Below are positions 1,288 through 8,932 of a stretch of 12,945 bases of DNA, in pieces. The number at the start of each line of letters is the position of its first letter. Positions within the stretch are counted from its first letter, which is position 1. The notes under the pieces were generated by a model. The model had not been told where the DNA came from and did not search any database. It worked only from the letters and a program-made list of their open reading frames with translations. Origin of the DNA: a virus (taxonomy: Duplodnaviria > Heunggongvirae > Uroviricota > Caudoviricetes); the IMG/VR virus record IMGVR_UViG_2778261277_000020, positions 1-12,945 of that record; one strand, given 5' to 3'. Position numbers and translations under genes: made by a program.

Positions 1288-3672
1288 TTAAAAATCAGCC
1301 TGACTCGGGATCAGTTTTTGCCAGATAACTGAAACGTATTTTGCCTGGTAACGGGCGTCATCAAGTGCATTATGGCGCTCACCTTCGAATGGAATAGCCG
1401 TTCTGGCATCGAAGTCTATGGCTTTCCCCAGCTCAACGATTGTGCGTACATCGCGATCGTTGTGGTAGCGCCACGGGCAGGGGATCCCCTGCCGTTCATA
1501 TGAACGGCGTAAAATTACGTTGTCGAAGTTGGCTCCATTTCCCCAGACCTGAACAAAAAATTCACCGGAGTTTTCGGCGATAAATTCCCGCAATTGCAGT
1601 AGTGCATCATCTAACGGGATTTCATCGGTCAGAATGGTAGATTGCGCCTCGCGTGATTGCTTAAGCCACCATTTAATGGTGCCACGATCAATGACTCCGC
1701 CAGCAGTATCCAGATCGATGGTCTTACTAAATTCCGGTCCCATATCTCCGGTTTGCGGATCGAAAAATATTGCACCTATTGAGATAATCGGCGCATCAGG
1801 ATTTTTTCCCATCGTTTCAAGGTCGATCATTAGATGGTCACACGTCCTGCTGGTGGATGTGATAACGTGATGACCATTCACCGTAATTAAGGGATCTGTC
1901 GTCTCGCCAGTTTCACTATCGCTGGCGTGGTCCTGAGCGCTGCCAGCATTCTCCTTGTGTGGATGTTCAGCGCCTTCCATTTCCTCCGGATCTTTTTCCT
2001 GAGCTTCAGCCTGATTTTCTTTATCGAATGTTTCCTGGTATGTTGCGTCGCCCATCACTGCGCCACAATCAGGGCAGTTGCCTCCTCCCGGCTGACCGCA
2101 GGTATCGCAGACTTTCTCCTGCACAGGTTGATTTTCGACGTCGCTATTTTCCGTTTTTTCGACTTCATCTGAGAGGATTTGATGGCCGGGAATCCATTTC
2201 GGATCATTCGGGTCGCTAATCCCTTCAACAAATTCTCCGCGAGAGGCAGCCAGCAACTTATCGGCGTCAGGCTGGCTGACGTTTGCTGCCTGCATAATTT
2301 TGTTTACTTCGTTAGCGGTAACTTTTACCTGATTGACGGGATTTACCTGTGACTGAGCATCCAGCGGCTGCGTGTCCTGATGATGTTCAGTTGCATCCGG
2401 TTCCATTGTTTCAGCCGCTGCCTGTTCACATGCCATTGCGCCAGATGGTTGCGGTTTTTCTGCATCATTTTTTTCTTCTTCTGTTTCTTGCCCGGCAGCC
2501 AGCTCGCGGTTTATTTCTTCCAGAATATCTTTTTCCGGTGTATGTCGGGCAGCCGTGAGTGTTTCCTGGCTGGGGTTCTCGTGATCAGTCTCCGTTAAAT
2601 GGGCGTTGATATACCCCTGAAGGCGTCCCGGGTAGTGATAAAATTCAGGGTGTGCGCTTCGGATAAGTGCAAAAATAGCGGCGCGAGAGTAGTCCAGGAT
2701 ACCCGGGGTTGAGCGAAGTGCTGCTGACCACTCCCTGAACGGACTTTCTTTCTTCCGGACGATTTCTTTTGCGCGGCGATAAACGCTGCCAGGAATGTCA
2801 TAAATATTAAAATCCATCGGAAGCGTGGCTGCTGCAATCTCCAGATCCAGTGTATCGAGGGTGTGTACTAAATCCGGATTACGATCGGTTTTGTTTCCGC
2901 CTCCGGCATTTGCACCGGAAGCCGTACGGGTGATACGCGAAACACGATTTCCTTTCATCCACTCTTTTGTCAGCAGGCCGCGATCGGTGTAGTCAGCGTC
3001 CAGGTATGCTTCGAAAAAAGCAGTCATTAATCCCAGACTGGAATTAACGGGATTAGGGAAAACTTTGTCAGTGTCGCGAACCAGTTTGTGGTGGTCGCGA
3101 AGTTCCAGTGGGTCGAGCAGGCTGGTTTTGTGCGAAATAGCCAGGGCAGTAACTGCCGGTAGCTCTTCAGCCCGAGCGATATGTAATGCCTGAAGTTCAT
3201 CTCTTGAAACGTGTGTTACTGGTTTTTCGCTGCCGTGTTGAGCAAGCCAACGGATTGCCACCTCCTGACCGGAAACTGGCAGGAGCATGCTCTCCTCAAT
3301 CTCCGTCATGTCTTCGCCGTTAACATTGGTATTTTCGGTGCTGGCTGGTTTGTTCTGCACAGAGGGAGATGGCGCGGTGAATACCATTGTGATGCCATCT
3401 TCACCGCCTTTTTCATAGCGGTTACAGAATTCGGTATCAAACACGCCTTCTGGTGGAAGGTCATTCACAACAGGCAAATGGACGCGAACAGGTTTTTTAA
3501 AGTCCTCTTCGTCGTAACCAGCATCATCCATTGCGACATTACCGCGGGAAACTGCAACAGATAATTTTTTTGCTGTAGTCCAGTAAAAACCTCCTTTAAT
3601 ACCGAGACGTTTTCTGACTTTGTCATTTTTGGCTTCGTAATGGAGTGCAATGTCTTGTTTGTCAGTGCTCAT
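1288..3672 (-). CDS. Exodeoxyribonuclease VIII-like protein (794 aa): RecE-like N-terminal/central region fused to a C-terminal DEDDh (DnaQ-like) 3'-5' exonuclease domain
   Basis: ATG at 3672 with GAGG 9 nt upstream. Central segments ([57 protein letters not shown], Cys-x2-Cys...Cys-x2-Cys [17 protein letters not shown]) match my memory of the E. coli Rac RecE N-terminal region. The C-terminal ~180 aa carry DEDDh motifs (MIDLETMG; [10 protein letters not shown]; HNALDDARY). Confidence 0.8.
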
Positions 3673-4523: not shown

Positions 4524-5078
4524 TCAATGGATATTAAGTAACTGCTCCACGGTCATATTTTTAATTACGTCCCTGTTCACAAGCGTCCATCCCTGTTTCT
4601 CCAGATAAAAGCGGAAGGTATCCAGGGTGCAGACCATTGCACCATCAGGAACGGTTTCAGTGAATTTGATGTTGCCGTGTTCGTCGAGACGGATAACCAG
4701 GGTACGTCCGTCCCCGTGAATCATTTTGTCGGGAGACGGGGCGTTATTCTGGCGCAGTTCTTTCTCCATGCGATCGAACTCAGCGATGTAGGCTTCTTTA
4801 AATGCAGCGGCTTTTTTGCCGGTGAAGCCCATCACCAGGAAAACGAAGCCGTTTTTGGTGATTTGGTACATAGGGAGTTTGCGTCCTGTTGAGTCGGTGT
4901 ATTCGCTCGACACAAAATTGTGCTCAGTGAATTTTGCTGAACAGTCCAGATTGCGAATTTTATCCAACACTCGTTCGTGGCGTTTACCAAAGAACTCGGC
5001 GATCGCAACAGACGTAGTGACAGCGCGACCATTTTCGATGGTTACATCAGGGTGATAAATGGTAGGGGTAGTAGCCAT
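4524..5078 (-). CDS. rha: Rha-family phage regulatory protein (184 aa)
   Basis: N-terminal ~100 aa (IENGRAVTTSVAIAEFFGKRHERVLDKIRNLDCS...MYQITKNGFVFLVMGFTGKKAAAFKEAYIAEF) match the Rha domain as I recall it. ATG at 5078 with GGAGG 8 nt upstream. The 282-aa ORF in the track is an in-frame upstream extension that contains a terminator hairpin. Confidence 0.8.
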   Translation of the reverse strand: MATTPTIYHPDVTIENGRAVTTSVAIAEFFGKRHERVLDKIRNLDCSAKFTEHNFVSSEYTDSTGRKLPMYQITKNGFVFLVMGFTGKKAAAFKEAYIAEFDRMEKELRQNNAPSPDKMIHGDGRTLVIRLDEHGNIKFTETVPDGAMVCTLDTFRFYLEKQGWTLVNRDVIKNMTVEQLLNIH

Positions 5079-5244
5079 GATGGCAGCCTCCGCGATGAAT
5101 TTAATTAACTCACCACCAGAGGTGCTAATCTCATGGGTGGTGAGACGCACAGGGTTAGCACTACCGGTCATCACGGAACCCGGCCAGCCTTGCGGCTGCC
5201 CTGCACGCCTCACCATAATGCGAATGTGGCTGTGCTTAACGCAT

Positions 5245-5267
5245 AAAAAAACCGCCTGAGCGCGGTT
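5245..5267 (-). terminator. Minus-strand intrinsic-terminator-like hairpin (6-bp stem AACCGC / GCGGTT, 6-nt loop) followed by U7
   Basis: Plus-strand sequence AAAAAAACCGCCTGAGCGCGGTT at 5245-5267; on the minus strand this is stem-loop plus TTTTTTT. Confidence 0.5.
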
Positions 5268-5948
5268 ATGCGCCGTGATTGACTTCGGGGTGCTAATCCC
5301 GGCACCCGTTTTATGAGGTGCAGATGAACTATAATTCCACCCGTACTGGTTTTCAATAGCTACATTCAACATTTTCTCTTACCCTTCATCACCGAAGTGA
5401 ACTTTGTTGATGCAGTGCCTGGTGCCTCCAGGTGACGTTAACCAGTTAACAATTAACGCCGGAATACAGAAGTATGCCCGTTACGCCCCGTAAAAGACCA
5501 CTTTACGGTTTTAACTGTTCCGCGTGCGCTTAGCCGCATTCACCGCATCACAAAATTCACTTTAAAAAGGGTGGCAGAGCAGTCACGGAGTAGAACTGAT
5601 GCCACCAAAGACTACACATGGGTATTGTGGCGGGGCTGTCACTTAAGCGTATGGTCAACCTGACAACCCGGTGCATTTTCTGGAGCAATGGAGGAAACCC
5701 CAGCCATACTTACCGCCGCGCCATTTCGCGGATTGCCACAACCGGAAGCGCACGTTCGAGGAAATCTAACGACAAGCCTTCTAAGGGAAAGAGCTTCGCC
5801 GTACGCTTTCGCGTTATGCCCTGACTTTTCAGGGAAATATCCTTTCAGTAAACTGTCAGTACCGGATTCTTATCCGTGTCCGGCGCACGACCGCACGTGA
5901 CAGCGTGTTGGTCTCCATTTTTAACCCAGAACCTCAATGGAGGATAAA

Positions 5949-6158: not shown

Positions 6159-6809
6159 TTACCAGTCAATCCAGAGCGGACCGTGTTCAGCGTAAATATA
6201 ACTGTACACATCCAGATTATATTTGTGGTCTGTTAAGAACAGGCCGCAAATACATGCCGAAGCTTCCAGGGCAGCGGCTCTGTTACTGAATAACCATGTA
6301 GCAACATTCCAGCGTTTTTCTGCATCCCAGTCTTTCTCAAGGCCTGATACCATGAAGAAACCGTTAGTGTTGCCATCAAATAATTCTGTTTCCAGATTTT
6401 TAAGCAATGCCTGATGGACTCTTGCCAGGTATTCCGCCGGAATTTCGCCACGAATTCTGATGAGATTGTCATAAACAAACATGTTCCCCGCATATGGCGA
6501 TTTTTCTTTCTTGTTTTTTAAACCAGCATCATGAGCAAACTGATCAATTTCTTCTTCCGTTGGTTTCGTATTGATGTTTTGCGCTGTCGTTTCTGCAATT
6601 TTATTTGCCACACTCTCTGAGTCGTGTTTATTTATAGACGCACAGAAATACAATCCGGTAAACGCATCGCGCACATTACGAGCCATATTATCAGTGTCTT
6701 TTTTCGTTACCGATTCCAATTCAAGTTCGTTCAGACGATGACGAAGTGTGTGTGCTGCAATCTCTTGGATTGAAGGAGGTAAATCTTTAAATTCCATCGT
6801 CAACCTCAT
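6159..6809 (-). CDS. Hypothetical protein (216 aa from ATG 6809; 212 aa if ATG 6797), AT-rich, no TM segment
   Basis: ATG at 6809 overlaps the stop of the upstream 50-aa gene (TGATG); the alternative ATG at 6797 has GAGG 7 nt upstream. No motif I can name. Confidence 0.65.
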   Translation of the reverse strand: MRLTMEFKDLPPSIQEIAAHTLRHRLNELELESVTKKDTDNMARNVRDAFTGLYFCASINKHDSESVANKIAETTAQNINTKPTEEEIDQFAHDAGLKNKKEKSPYAGNMFVYDNLIRIRGEIPAEYLARVHQALLKNLETELFDGNTNGFFMVSGLEKDWDAEKRWNVATWLFSNRAAALEASACICGLFLTDHKYNLDVYSYIYAEHGPLWIDW

Positions 6810-6961
6810 CAGTCAGTGTTTCTGGCTAACCAGCGACGCGCGCCAGCTGCGGTTTTAAACGTTTTGCTTCTGGTATACGTCATCGCGGTAAACGTGCCGT
6901 CCAGGTTGGGGAATACTCCGCATACCAGAGATTCGTTGTTGCCAAGATTGAGCGTATCCAT
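6809..6961 (-). CDS. Hypothetical small protein (50 aa) with basic C-terminus
   Basis: ATG at 6961 with GAGG 5 nt upstream; first gene leftward of the OL-like palindrome; stop overlaps next start. Confidence 0.45.
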   Translation of the reverse strand: MDTLNLGNNESLVCGVFPNLDGTFTAMTYTRSKTFKTAAGARRWLARNTD

Positions 6962-7139
6962 GTTGACCTCATTTCCCCTTAACGCCGGGTAGCGGAACAA
7001 AAACCTGCTGCATAGTTATTAAAGTTGAACCCTGCCGTCATGTTCTTACGCCTCGGGCTGGCTACTTAACCCCTGACCACTGCCTGGTAACTCGAAGTAT
7101 TGCCTGGCGTTCTGTGGGCGGGGTGGGTTGGTGAATACA

Positions 7140-7186
7140 ATCTACAATTAAAAACTGTTTTATGTCAACAGTTTTTAATTGTAGAT
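7140..7186. promoter_or_regulatory. 47-bp perfect palindrome (20-bp arms ATCTACAATTAAAAACTGTT, 7-bp spacer): candidate OL-like operator
   Basis: Read directly; shares the half-site TACAAT(A/T)AAAAACTGT with the palindrome at 8178-8218; lies between the terminator after parE and the first leftward gene. Confidence 0.6.
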
Positions 7187-7192
7187 CTGAGC

Positions 7193-7215
7193 AAAAAAAA
7201 TCCCTCGAAAGAGGG
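7193..7215 (-). terminator. Minus-strand intrinsic-terminator-like hairpin (CCCTC-GAAA-GAGGG) followed by U8, downstream of parE
   Basis: Plus strand AAAAAAAATCCCTCGAAAGAGGG at 7193-7215; on the minus strand this is stem-loop then 8 U; about 20 nt past the parE stop (7235). Confidence 0.5.
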
Positions 7216-7234
7216 AGTATGAAAATTGTTCAGC

Positions 7235-7522
7235 TCAGATAGAGGAGGGAAATTGTCGGCGAGCATGTATCACGCTTACAATCTCAATGCTTGAAGCAGC
7301 TACTCTGTACAGGATTATGTAGTTAGGGTGGGTCACTATCTCTCTCACCCCTGAAACCCGTTCGCTTAGTGGATATAGGTACGGATGCTCAGATAGAGGT
7401 AATACCGATGTTTCAATGCGTATTTTTAGTCTGCGCGCTGCCGGTGGGTTCTCCTTGGCGATGTAAGTTATGATCTGACGCAAATCATCGCGAGCAGATG
7501 GTAGCCATAAAATGGGTAACAT
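7235..7522 (-). CDS. parE: ParE/RelE-family toxin (95 aa)
   Basis: Sequence LRQIITYIAKENPPAARRL...IVSVIHARRQFP is typical of ParE toxins; start overlaps the antitoxin stop (TAATG). Confidence 0.85.
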   Translation of the reverse strand: MLPILWLPSARDDLRQIITYIAKENPPAARRLKIRIETSVLPLSEHPYLYPLSERVSGVREIVTHPNYIILYRVAASSIEIVSVIHARRQFPSSI

Positions 7523-7713
7523 TACTCGCTCCTGTTAGTTACAACGATTTGAGCAATAAGATTTTCCATTTCAGCCATTACCTCGTCATGTGGAATTGCG
7601 GGACGAGGGTCTGCAAGGCTCGACGCTACTTTAGCGCGCAACCATTCGTTGTAACTGTTTTCTTGTTCGATAGTTTCGAATTCTGAAACTATCGGAGAAA
7701 GGGCTGTACCCAT
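7522..7713 (-). CDS. paaA: PaaA2-like antitoxin (63 aa)
   Basis: SEFETIEQENSYNEWLRAKVASSLADPRPAIPHDEV matches my memory of PaaA2 from the E. coli O157 paaR2-paaA2-parE2 module; GAGGAG SD 7 nt upstream of ATG 7713. Confidence 0.75.
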   Translation of the reverse strand: MGTALSPIVSEFETIEQENSYNEWLRAKVASSLADPRPAIPHDEVMAEMENLIAQIVVTNRSE

Positions 7714-7740
7714 GGCATAACTCCTCTTCTTGTACTGTGG

Positions 7741-8142
7741 TCACGCCCGGCGGCTTTTTTGTGCCGCCAGCCACCGGGCAATGGTTTCTTCCATTGATTT
7801 TTTCTTGTCTTTGATTTCTTGAAGCATTTTTTCTTGGTCTTCCTCAGGGAACGCACTAAAAGCCTGGAGCAGTTCGCGTTGGCGAGGACCAATTTTCATC
7901 GTGTCAGGGGTGAAAATTTGCTCCCCCTCTTCAGGAGGCAATAAAAACCAATGCAATGGATGCCCTGTAACCTCAACCAGTTTATCCAAACTTGAGGCTT
8001 TAGGTGTAGCCTTACCGCTGACCCATTGTTGAACAGTTTGTTGTGTCACACCAATTCTACGGGCAAGCTCAGCCTGGCTCCATCCAGTTTCCTGAAGAAG
8101 CTTGCTGATTCTGTACATAGATACTTCTAGGGCGCTCATCAT
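7741..8142 (-). CDS. paaR: PaaR2-like / CI-like HTH (XRE family) transcriptional repressor (133 aa)
   Basis: N-terminal HTH (WSQAELARRIGVTQQTVQQWVSG); first gene of the three-gene cassette; divergent from a cro-like gene across a palindromic operator; no SD before the ATG (possibly leaderless). Confidence 0.75.
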   Translation of the reverse strand: MMSALEVSMYRISKLLQETGWSQAELARRIGVTQQTVQQWVSGKATPKASSLDKLVEVTGHPLHWFLLPPEEGEQIFTPDTMKIGPRQRELLQAFSAFPEEDQEKMLQEIKDKKKSMEETIARWLAAQKSRRA

Positions 8143-8177
8143 TATTCAATTTTACAGGTAAATACTGTTAAAAGCAT

Positions 8178-8218
8178 TACAATAAAAAACTGTTGATCAA
8201 ATACAGTTTTTTATTGTA
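8178..8218. promoter_or_regulatory. 41-bp perfect palindrome (16-bp arms TACAATAAAAAACTGT, 9-bp spacer TGATCAAAT) in the divergent paaR / ydaS control region: candidate OR-like operator
   Basis: Read directly; sits between paaR start (8142) and ydaS start (8251); a TATAGT -10-like hexamer at 8228-8233 lies just downstream on the plus strand. Confidence 0.6.
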
Positions 8219-8250
8219 GCCTTTGCCTATAGTTTTTAGAGGAGGGGAAA

Positions 8251-8523
8251 ATGCTAGATAGCACTCGCGAAAAAATTAGGCAGAAATACACTCAGGCTGA
8301 AATAGGTCGTTATATGGGGGTCGCCCAACAGACCGTTTGGCAATGGTTTAGCTTTGGCGTCCCCCCAAAGCAGGTAATTCCGCTATGTCAGCTAATGAAG
8401 TGGGAAGTTACCCCGCATGAAATTCGCCCAGACATTTACCCTAACCCAACTGACGGTTTACCTGTTGGATGTAAGGCTAACACACCAAATGCACCGGAGA
8501 TGATTCATGAAAATCAAGCATGA
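8251..8523 (+). CDS. ydaS: Cro-like HTH protein of the YdaS family (90 aa)
   Basis: Strong SD GAGGAGGGG then ATG 8251; HTH AEIGRYMGVAQQTVWQW and the EIRPDI motif I associate with YdaS/Cro-like proteins; divergent from the repressor gene. Confidence 0.75.
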   Translation: MLDSTREKIRQKYTQAEIGRYMGVAQQTVWQWFSFGVPPKQVIPLCQLMKWEVTPHEIRPDIYPNPTDGLPVGCKANTPNAPEMIHENQA

Positions 8524-8932
8524 ACATATCCGCATGGCGATGAATGCCTGGGCGCATCCGGACGGCGAAAAAGTACCGGCTGCGAAAATTACCAAAGCGT
8601 ATTTCGAGCTGGGAATGACGTTCCCGGAACTGTATGACGACAGCCATCCGGAAGCCCTGGCTCGCAATACTCAGAAAATTTTCCGCTGGGTGGAGAAAGA
8701 CACCCCTGATGCGGTTAAAAAAATTCAGGCGTTGTTACCAGCTATCGAAAAAGCAATGCCACCTCTGCTGGTGGCCCGAATGCGCAGCCATAGCTCAGCC
8801 TATTTTCGGGAACTGGTGGAGACGCGGGAACGACTGGTGAGAGACGCTGATGATTTTGTCGCAGTGGCGATCGCTGGTTTCAACCAGATGAATCGTGGTG
8901 GCCCTGCAGGAAATATTGTGGCTGTGCATTGA
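8507..8932 (+). CDS. ydaT: YdaT-like protein (CII functional analogue), 141 aa
   Basis: Starts MKIKHEHI..., as I recall for Rac / CP-933P YdaT; overlaps ydaS by 17 nt; GGAGA SD 7 nt upstream. Confidence 0.75.
   Translation: MKIKHEHIRMAMNAWAHPDGEKVPAAKITKAYFELGMTFPELYDDSHPEALARNTQKIFRWVEKDTPDAVKKIQALLPAIEKAMPPLLVARMRSHSSAYFRELVETRERLVRDADDFVAVAIAGFNQMNRGGPAGNIVAVH

Follow-up and report, generated by a model that had tools for sequence, protein, structure and literature searches.

Two long palindromes as probable operator modules of a lambdoid immunity switch related to that of CP-933P

Two long palindromes in the 12,945-nucleotide stretch of Caudoviricetes DNA analysed here (the window; IMG/VR record IMGVR_UViG_2778261277_000020) very probably act as promoter-operator modules of a lambdoid immunity switch, each built from two mirrored 15-bp operators placed around a -35 hexamer. 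On sequence grounds, the switch is best read as a heteroimmune relative of the characterised PaaR2/YdaS/YdaT switch of CP-933P. Conceptually, it remains a standard lambdoid switch. This type of switch is already known, but the operator sequence of the present immunity type has not been described before; a full-text search for any of four operator 15-mers returned no relevant paper. Site anatomy, the conservation pattern and protein homologies were obtained directly, using relatives taken from IMG/VR and complete E. coli genomes.

A repeat search bore out both perfect palindromes, with exactly the arm lengths and spacers first described in a sequence-only reading of this DNA. The left palindrome (7140-7186) is an inverted repeat with 20-nt arms (7140-7159 and 7167-7186) and a 7-nt spacer; the right one (8178-8218) has 16-nt arms (8178-8193 and 8203-8218) and a 9-nt spacer. 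The arms are 100% complementary in both cases. The longest perfect hairpin-type arm arising by chance in 300 second-order Markov simulations of the window was 12 nt. The common half-site TACAAT(T/A)AAAAACTGT had been given correctly for both palindromes; left and right half-sites differ at one position (T versus A), and the difference is mirrored inside each palindrome. Both elements are A/T-rich. Folding as single-stranded DNA yielded -17.8 and -13.3 kcal/mol for the left and right palindrome, with z-scores of -7.7 and -7.1 against shuffles, values of a strength that any perfect palindrome is expected to give. The two also bracket the toxin-antitoxin/repressor cassette as claimed: the left one is found past the parE stop (7235) and the operon terminator, and the right one between the starts of the repressor gene (8142) and ydaS (8251).

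Judged by its sequence, each arm is an ordinary-sized pseudo-palindromic operator of 15 bp (ACA-N9-TGT). The arm core, ACA(A/G)T-W5-A(C/T)TGT, is invariant across about 40 related prophages; spacers and outer flanks vary freely. The earlier premise of single operators of unusual length is therefore not supported: long perfect palindromes exist, but each comprises two adjacent operators. The suggestion of multi-dimer binding fits this arrangement. Palindrome length itself is partly specific to the window. Palindromic pairing of the outer 4-5 bp in the left arms and of the outermost base pair in the right arms is limited to the window and a few near-identical relatives. The pair 8178:8218 is complementary in one of 20 OR sequence variants, and the pairs 7141:7185 and 7143:7183 are complementary in four of 25 OL variants. 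The palindrome conserved family-wide has arms of 15-16 nt.

The left palindrome corresponds to an OL/PL module in which two operators flank the -35 element of a predicted leftward promoter. OL1 (7144-7158, ACAATTAAAAACTGT; 19.6 bits with a position weight matrix, PWM, of the family) lies between the -35 and -10 elements of PL and shares position 7144 with the -10. OL2 (7168-7182, ACAGTTTTTAATTGT; 19.1 bits) lies directly upstream of the -35 and shares position 7168 with it. The right palindrome consists of OR2, the predicted PR -35 and OR1, in that order. OR2 (8179-8193, ACAATAAAAAACTGT; 20.3 bits) abuts the PR -35 and is located just upstream of a weak PRM -35, and OR1 (8203-8217, ACAGTTTTTTATTGT; 19.6 bits) occupies the PR spacer and touches the -10. 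A weaker operator inside the PRM spacer, OR3 (8154-8168, ACAGGTAAATACTGT; 19.0 bits), makes the right cluster tripartite. Successive sites are spaced by 25 and 24 bp at OR (8154, 8179, 8203) and by 24 bp at OL (7144, 7168). All five sites fall in the two regulatory gaps and score 19.0-20.3 bits, against 11.8 bits for the next best site in 12.9 kb, with the scores being partly circular since the matrix includes the window's own sites. Within 7050-7300, a search for a third OL site yielded nothing above -0.1 bits besides OL1 and OL2.

Conservation follows the operators closely. Among 42 loci with 20 distinct OR variants, no position of OR1 or OR2 varies, and a single position of the 15 varies in OR3, in comparison with six of the nine positions in the spacer between OR1 and OR2. 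The location of OR3 is also kept in the relatives L042-L044. Across 25 distinct OL variants, OL2 varies at one of its 15 positions and OL1 at two, each in a single variant and without compensation; the right flank of OL (7183-7190) varies at seven of eight. Three ACA-N9-TGT sites with the 25/24-bp spacing are also present in relatives with 82% and 69% repressor identity, and a locus with a 49% identical repressor (L051) has preserved the OL pair together with recognisable OR sites. Within the close family, paired sites show 15/15 mirror identity at OL as well as OR. Mirror identity at OR amounts to 14/15 in L043 and 13/15 in L044, versus 13/15 and 8/15 when the sites are compared directly, and across the family the OR sites have the same arrangement of an outer ACAA(T/G) and an inner ACAGT half-site. 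In the more divergent relatives L042 and L043, both OL sites are kept at their spacing and mirror symmetry is lost (9/15 mirrored versus 12/15 direct in L042; 11 versus 12 in L043). L047-type relatives, with a 67% identical repressor and the helix AQQSVQKW, display a different and less clear repeat (..AAAGTGT).

Putative PL (7139-7168, minus strand) combines TTGACA (7168-7163), an 18-nt spacer and TAGATT (7144-7139), matching 10 of 12 positions of the sigma-70 consensus. Its -35 is invariant in 25 close variants and its -10 carries one change, with the neighbouring bases being variable; in divergent relatives, TGACAT (TGACGA in L044) comes after the first OL site. DicF is encoded downstream, and PL would drive the DUF1391...DicF operon leftwards. 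Putative PR (8193-8222, plus strand) has the same layout, with TTGATC (8193-8198), 18 nt and TAGCCT (8217-8222). It matches the consensus weakly (7/12) and was not reported by a promoter consensus scan; the assignment draws on the resemblance to PL in layout. Variation in TTGAT and TAG..T is limited to one G-to-T change (8195), and the spacer and -10 positions 4-5 vary. TATAGT (8228-8233) was considered as the PR -10 and rejected, as it lacks a -35 partner and is not conserved at its key positions (TGTAGT, TATCGT and TATGAA in relatives). The putative PRM -10, TAAAAT (8149-8154, minus strand), is invariant in 20 variants and ends 7 nt before the A of the repressor ATG. Hence the repressor mRNA would lack a leader, and PRM is probably of the leaderless type. 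The repressor-paaA-parE operon ends in its own intrinsic terminator (7216-7201, minus strand), a G+C-rich hairpin (TCCCTCTTTCGAGGGA followed by T8) that is separate from the palindromes and whose stem is kept in relatives.

Pfam assignments (ParE_toxin, PaaA2, HTH_3, YdaS_toxin and YdaT_toxin, on the expected strands) place a repressor-paaA-parE operon divergent from ydaS-ydaT. The CI-type repressor (133 aa; 7741-8142, minus strand; HTH_3) couples a 434-like helix-turn-helix (HTH) with the recognition helix TQQTVQQW to a PaaR2-type C-terminal domain. It shares 42% identity over 98 aa with PaaR2 of CP-933P (BLASTP, E 8e-21), the similarity being greatest over the final 45 aa. In Pfam, significance was reached by HTH-type DNA-binding families alone, alongside one weak sub-threshold OpuAC match, and the 133-aa protein had no match to Peptidase_S24, the domain of RecA-stimulated autocleavage. 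The helix GVTQQTVQQW is identical in the relatives with 82%, 69% and 49% (L051) identical repressors. YdaS, the Cro analogue (8251-8523, plus strand; PF15943), carries the recognition helix AQQTVWQW and is 42% identical to the repressor HTH region (E 2e-8), so that QQTVxQW is common to both proteins; no solved-structure relative of YdaS is detectable by sequence. The CII analogue YdaT (8507-8932, plus strand; Pfam YdaT_toxin) matches CP-933P YdaT (PDB 8bt1) at E 2e-80. The ParE-family toxin (7235-7522, minus strand; PF05016, E 5e-17) matches CP-933P ParE2 (PDB 5cw7) at E 2e-35, and its neighbour is a PaaA2-family antitoxin (7522-7713, minus strand; PF21217, E 3e-22). A 10-nt inverted repeat within paaA (7668-7694) is shortened in most relatives.

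The phage 434 repressor is the best solved-structure match of the repressor DNA-binding domain, with low overall similarity confined to the HTH region (E 2e-5). Gln17/28/29/33 of 434 are aligned in this match, with TQQTVQQ facing TQQSIEQ (phmmer against 1per/2r63). The end pentamers of 434 operators, ACAAG and ACAAT, equal those of the window, and DNA co-crystallised with 434 contains ACAAG-ATAC-ATTGT. In 434, five plus five outer base pairs are contacted, and the non-contacted centre is read indirectly. The systems also resemble each other in an A/T-rich operator centre and a QQ helix common to repressor and Cro. The 434 OR is tripartite. However, the 434 operator spans 14 bp (ACAA-N6-TTGT; 5+4+5), whereas those of the window and its relatives span 15 bp (5+5+5), so that dimer geometry must differ from that of 434. 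The repressors further diverge in the PaaR2-type C-terminal domain of the window's protein, which has no S24 autocleavage domain.

The closest characterised system is the immunity region of CP-933P in E. coli O157:H7, comprising paaR2-paaA2-parE2 and ydaS-ydaT together with OR, OL, PR, PRM and PL (Jurenas et al. 2021, PMC8630535). There, footprints on OR were obtained for both PaaR2 and YdaS, and both repress PR, PRM and PL; at low levels PaaR2 activates PRM, PaaR2 octamerises, and 5' RACE showed that paaR2 is leaderless (PMC8630535). Gene order and families are the same in the window, and the repressor C-terminal region is homologous to the oligomerisation region of PaaR2. Operator clusters likewise lie in the repressor/ydaS gap and beyond parE beside a PL-type promoter, a putative -10 is positioned as a leaderless repressor mRNA would require, and a YdaT site is predicted at the ydaS end. 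The flanks of the two systems share 96% DNA identity up to 7132 and 85% from 8496, whereas OL, the repressor 5' end, OR and ydaS lack detectable similarity at the DNA level. PaaR2 and YdaS of CP-933P carry recognition helices of the type SYLSQ..SGR, in contrast to QQTVxQW in the window, and their operators are GTTTAGT(A/G) repeats instead of ACA-N9-TGT. A CP-933P-type locus among the relatives (L052) has GTTTAGT repeats and lacks ACA-N9-TGT sites at OR and OL; conversely, the published CP-933P consensus GTTTAGTAA is absent from relatives of the window. The intergenic region measures 97 bp in CP-933P and 108 bp in the window, and four inverted repeats/three OR operators plus three at OL were reported there, compared with three OR and two OL sites here. 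Because PaaR2 and YdaS share a different helix and have different operators, helix and operator co-vary, and the predicted immunity specificity differs from that of CP-933P. Compared side by side, the two immunity types reveal a cassette exchange (7133-8495): the recognition helices of repressor and Cro analogue and the two operator clusters are swapped jointly, with YdaT, its site and the PaaR2-type C-terminal domain being kept.

The original comparison of the palindromes with lambda OL and OR also stands, since they represent the OL and OR equivalents of a lambdoid switch. Shared features include divergent PR and PRM, three sites about 24 bp apart, a second cluster at PL and four strong sites that match four dimers, that is, an octamer. 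Relative to the predicted leaderless PRM start, OR2 of the window has its centre 44 bp upstream; lambda OR2 is centred near -42. Differences from lambda concern operator sequence and length (17 bp versus 15 bp), the OL-OR distance (about 2.4 kb versus 1.0 kb), the absence of an OL3 and of a RecA-cleavable repressor domain in the window, and a toxin-antitoxin pair located where lambda has rexAB. The leftward operon recalls the Qin DicA/DicC-dicBF module, as it holds a DUF1391 (ydfA-type) gene and DicF. RacR of the Rac RacR/YdaS/YdaT system is about 158 aa long. Rac also has three inverted-repeat operators in its repressor-ydaS gap, but their sequence is (T/A)TAGGC-n3-GCCTA(T/A), RacR is a larger two-HTH protein (Fig. 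6 of PMC9638921), and Rac has no toxin-antitoxin cassette.

The binding protein, cooperativity, looping and exact transcription starts of the proposed switch are inferred from these comparisons. In each module, operator centres lie 24 bp apart, and the last T of one operator would form the first T of the -35 and that of the other the first T of the -10. The left module (OL2, OL1) would overlap PL of the DUF1391...DicF operon, and the right module (OR2, OR1) with OR3 would overlap both PR, reading rightwards into ydaS-ydaT, and PRM, reading leftwards into repressor-paaA-parE. Dimers of the 133-aa repressor may read the ACA/TGT ends through the 434-like Gln-Gln-x-x-x-Gln helix and the A/T-rich operator centre through DNA shape. 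The Cro analogue YdaS, with the same helix, would bind the same sites. Occupancy of OR1+OR2 and OL1+OL2 would occlude PR and PL, repressor at OR2 would be placed to activate PRM, and OR3 would provide negative autoregulation. A loop of 1,035 bp between OL and OR may form; the four strong sites, equal to four dimers, fit the octamer reported for PaaR2.

The weak PR match, an operator length that departs from the 14 bp of 434 and two OL sites where CP-933P is reported to have three speak against this model, as does the perfect 15/15 mirror identity within pairs, which independent dimer binding alone leaves unexplained. A rather unlikely explanation is that each mirrored pair functions as one unit, occupied by a tetramer with dyad symmetry (a dimer of dimers centred on the -35), with the whole 39-47-bp symmetry under selection, unlike the non-identical OR1/OR2 of lambda. 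The mirror identities in the close family, the excess of mirrored over direct identity at OR of L043 and L044, the constant half-site arrangement at OR and the higher oligomers formed by PaaR2 (PMC8630535) favour such a unit. However, OL sites and spacing persist without mirror symmetry in L042 and L043, and uncompensated variants occur in five IMG/VR loci (variant L039_n5). Invariance of the OR arms in the close family makes selection on symmetry inseparable from selection on each site, and shared ancestry or the constraints of abutting -35 and -10 elements could produce the same pattern. An extended form, which we consider improbable, is a closed dyad-symmetric PaaR-type octamer that would lock OL and OR in a small loop, the DNA being bent around the octamer by A-tracts of opposite orientation. 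It would account for both the exact mirror identity and the four near-identical strong sites 1,035 bp apart. Were it correct, the window would hold a minimal, fully symmetric lambda switch in which the ~40-bp symmetry, possibly with transient cruciform extrusion, is itself functional.

A role of the palindromes as DNA cruciforms or RNA hairpins (for example a supercoiling sensor, terminator or processing site), instead of or besides operators, is very improbable; the sequence-only reading had raised a cruciform or RNA hairpin in addition to operator function. Perfect 16-20-nt arms that fold well single-stranded (z about -7), A/T-richness that favours extrusion and the mirrored T-versus-A difference would suit this role. 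Yet the outer arm pairs are not conserved, and the three inside-arm substitutions found in relatives are all uncompensated, with no compensatory change. Furthermore, L042 keeps its OL sites in direct orientation (L043 being close, at 11 versus 12), the predicted starts, near 7132 for PL, near 8229 for PR and at 8142 for PRM, lie outside the palindromes, which are upstream of them, and the operon terminator is a separate element. No Rfam family matched at the palindromes. Binding by YdaT or a PaaA-ParE complex in place of the repressor and YdaS is hardly credible, even though antitoxin-toxin complexes classically autoregulate their own operons and YdaT binds DNA as a tetramer, with inverted repeats as its targets (PMC9986795). 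The YdaT site type, TTGATTN6AATCAA, is placed at the end of ydaS (PMC9986795). The window's YdaT is close to that of CP-933P, and a predicted high-affinity site (OM type) is similarly located at 8500-8517 (ATGATTCATGAAAATCAA, one mismatch), the sole one-mismatch match in the window, whereas matches with up to three mismatches are common by chance. Neither palindrome matches this type, YdaT is conserved between immunity types with completely different operators, and it is accordingly not expected to bind the palindromes. As for PaaA-ParE, Pfam shows no DNA-binding domain in the matched PaaA2 family, and the CP-933P operon is controlled by PaaR2 (PMC8630535).

Mirrored operator pairs around a -35 thus remain the preferred reading. 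A query containing OL and one containing OR each found matches in 510 of 5,426 complete E. coli genomes. The exact pattern of the full palindrome found nothing in species-representative genomes, where one genome per species means that absence says little, and a protein-seeded scan of the same set retrieved only an Arsenophonus locus. The region 7100-8300 has no match in 50,697 deposited phage genomes, and the closest phage repressors in a protein search are at most 53% identical. The operators probably control host-toxic functions, since the operon with DicF would be driven by PL and a ParE toxin is encoded in the repressor operon. Five 15-bp ACA-N9-TGT sites and a 434-like helix provide a testable operator model for an immunity type present in about 9% of complete E. 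coli genomes, including O157:H7 strains.

The two palindromes lie in a lambdoid prophage immunity region. The minus strand carries a DUF1391 (ydfA-type) gene (6809-7000) and genes for ParE (7235-7522), a PaaA2-family antitoxin (7522-7713), and an HTH_3 repressor of 133 aa (7741-8142), with an intrinsic terminator (7216-7201, minus strand) at the end of the repressor-TA operon. YdaS (8251-8523), YdaT (8507-8932), and, after YdaT in the gene list, a DnaT-domain replication protein are encoded on the plus strand. Both inverted repeats described in the sequence-only reading were recovered, the left with perfect 20-nt arms (7140-7159/7167-7186) around a 7-nt gap and the right with perfect 16-nt arms (8178-8193/8203-8218) around a 9-nt gap, as was their common half-site, TACAAT(T/A)AAAAACTGT. 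Chance origin is excluded, since the longest perfect arm among 300 second-order Markov simulations of the window measured 12 nt.

Every arm constitutes a 15-bp pseudo-palindrome in its own right, ACA(A/G)T-W5-A(C/T)TGT, and a fifth, weaker copy (ACAGGTAAATACTGT) is found at 8154-8168. These putative operators start at 7144 and 7168 in the left cluster (OL1 and OL2; spacing 24) and at 8154, 8179, and 8203 in the right cluster (OR3, OR2, and OR1; spacing 25 and 24). The centre-to-centre distance from OL to OR is 1,035 bp. The five sites reach 19.0-20.3 bits, compared with 11.8 bits for the runner-up in the window, on a position weight matrix built from this prophage family including the window's own sites, which makes the scores partly circular.

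The sites are interleaved with candidate promoters. A consensus scan placed a putative leftward PL (TTGACA-18-TAGATT, minus strand) in the left palindrome; its -35 hexamer occupies the gap between OL1 and OL2, and its -10 starts on the T that ends the distal site. The plus strand of the right palindrome repeats this layout, with TTGATC-18-TAGCCT as putative PR. This is a weak consensus match, absent from the promoter scan output, and the assignment of PR is correspondingly weak. The putative -10 of the repressor promoter PRM, TAAAAT (8154-8149, minus strand), is invariant and ends 7 nt ahead of the A of the repressor ATG, the predicted geometry of a leaderless PRM. OR3 falls within the putative PRM spacer, and OR2 lies directly upstream of a weak PRM -35. 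The window's OR gap also contains the palindrome TGATCA, with a GATC (Dam) site at 8195-8198 within the putative PR -35. TTGATC occurs in 12 of 20 OR variants, and the remaining 8 have T at 8198 (TTGATT, or TTTATT in one locus, L029).

Comparison across relatives covered 49 loci from a protein-seeded IMG/VR scan, in 40 of which the repressor is at least 92% identical, and one complete E. coli genome. Among 20 distinct OR variants, no core position varies in OR1 or OR2 (0/15 each) and one of 15 varies in OR3; six of the nine positions in the gap between the arms are variable, TTGAT within it is nearly invariant (a single G-to-T, at 8195), and the rest of the gap varies. Among 25 distinct OL variants, 2/15 core positions vary in OL1, 1/15 in OL2, and 7/8 in the right flank (7183-7190); the -35 TTGACA does not vary, and the -10 TAGATT has one variant. 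The outermost pair of the right palindrome, 8178:8218, is complementary in the window only (1/20), and the outer pairs 7141:7185 and 7143:7183 of the left one in just 4 of 25. Full arms of 20 and 16 nt are therefore confined to the window and near-identical loci, for example, L003 from IMG/VR; among complete E. coli genomes, the best match has 94.6% identity. To judge from these alignments, the unit conserved across relatives is the 15-bp site. In two loci (L040 and L041), OL (at 3609-3647) and OR lie 683 bp apart rather than 1,035 bp, implying that the TA cassette lost about 350 bp with both operator modules retained.

More distant relatives preserve this arrangement. Loci with repressors 82% (L043) and 69% (L044) identical have three ACA-N9-TGT sites at OR with unchanged spacing and an OL pair around TTGAC. 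At 49% repressor identity (L051/L002), the OL pair is kept and the OR sites are recognisable. The recognition helix, GVTQQTVQQW, is identical in all of them. The L002/L051 locus is on a contig of the insect symbiont Candidatus Arsenophonus triatominarum (NZ_LWMI01000003.1), whose prophage has a TTGACA -35 flanked by ACA-N9-TGT sites; as helix and sites are shared, the operator type reaches beyond Escherichia.

The sequence-only reading had also allowed for a cruciform or RNA-hairpin role. The palindromes do fold well, but this is trivial support, and the variation contradicts such a role, which we consider very improbable: all three substitutions inside the arms are uncompensated, and the overall pattern is as expected of protein-binding sites fused to promoter hexamers, not of base-paired structure. 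A requirement for dyad symmetry across a whole site pair is unlikely, though possible for OR. It is not general across relatives, where mirror symmetry between paired sites is not kept everywhere: at OL, the mirrored match is 9/15 against 12/15 for the direct match in L042, and 11 against 12 in L043.

Among all PDB sequences, the repressor DNA-binding domain is closest to the phage 434 repressor (E 2e-5), and the residues aligned with 434 Gln17, Gln28, Gln29, and Gln33 are conserved. In the 434 structures, the ACA is recognised by Gln28 and Gln29. Direct contacts in 434 involve the outer 5+5 bp, with indirect readout of the central bases. Co-crystal DNA contains ACAAG-ATAC-ATTGT for 434 repressor and ACAAA-CTTT-CTTGT for 434 Cro. 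The window's sites have the same end pentamers, with a centre 1 bp longer. YdaS and the repressor share the helix QQTVxQW. YdaT was rejected as a palindrome binder: it is conserved in both this immunity type and that of prophage CP-933P, and its published high-affinity site, TTGATTN6AATCAA (PMC9986795), differs by one mismatch from ATGATTCATGAAAATCAA at 8500-8517, a predicted YdaT site located, as it is in CP-933P, where ydaS and ydaT meet.

For CP-933P, experimental characterisation is available (Jurenas et al. 2021, PMC8630535). In that system, the CI-like PaaR2, which octamerises and is encoded by a leaderless gene, and the Cro-like YdaS footprint the intergenic region and control PR, PRM, and a PL on the far side of parE2 (PMC8630535). 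The C-terminal 98 aa of the window's repressor are homologous to PaaR2, and the ParE and YdaT encoded in the window are close to the crystallised CP-933P proteins. If the switch works like those of CP-933P, lambda, and 434, repressor dimers filling OR1+OR2 and OL1+OL2 would occlude PR and PL, with the OR2-bound repressor positioned to stimulate PRM. OR3 could mediate negative autoregulation, and YdaS may compete for the same sites. A PaaR2-type octamer might bridge OL and OR, which the four strong sites would fit.

Operators of RacR and of CP-933P differ from those of the window. In a CP-933P-type immunity locus (L052), PaaR2 and YdaS have another helix in common, SYLSQ..SGR, and GTTTAGT repeats serve as operators. 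DNA similarity to this locus is 96% up to 7132, ceases, and resumes from 8496 at 85%, so that 7132/7133 and 8495/8496 form sharp mosaic joints. No DNA similarity covers OL, the repressor 5' half, OR, or ydaS; parE, paaA, and the repressor 3' end are weakly similar (73-78%). The immunity cassette thus appears to have been exchanged as a block, with helix and operators co-varying as a single exchangeable cassette. Queries containing OL or OR each matched 510 of 5,426 complete E. coli genomes. At megablast sensitivity, the cassette was not found in 50,697 deposited phage genomes, nor were the operator 15-mers found in any relevant paper of the searchable literature. The switch belongs to a known kind of prophage switch as a new, heteroimmune member, its operator set unusually legible and hence useful rather than surprising.

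Further left, Rfam identifies three consecutive minus-strand sRNAs at 5133-5620, namely DicF (5569-5620), isrK (5245-5321), and C4 antisense RNA (5133-5220), for which the leftward operon is likened to the dicBF operon of Qin. In the PL operon, a Qin-like dicF module is joined by a P1/Gifsy-like C4/isrK module for antirepressor control. A domain search of the repressor (7741-8142) found no S24 self-cleavage domain, the protein is 30-33% identical to CI-like repressors of Gifsy-1/2 and SPN3UB, and the PL operon encodes an Ash/Rha protein; induction via an antirepressor instead of RecA cleavage seems plausible. The mechanically called ORF scoring for Ash and Rha domains (4524-5372) contains isrK and C4 in its 5' part; either its start should be placed more downstream, or this stretch serves as both RNA and coding sequence. 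Finally, the minus-strand paaA gene contains an inverted repeat at 7663-7699 (TTGTTCGATAGTTTC/GAAACTATCGGAGAA; 10 perfect bp at 7668-7694), which is shortened in most relatives by a G at 7670 and may be a by-product of the coding sequence.
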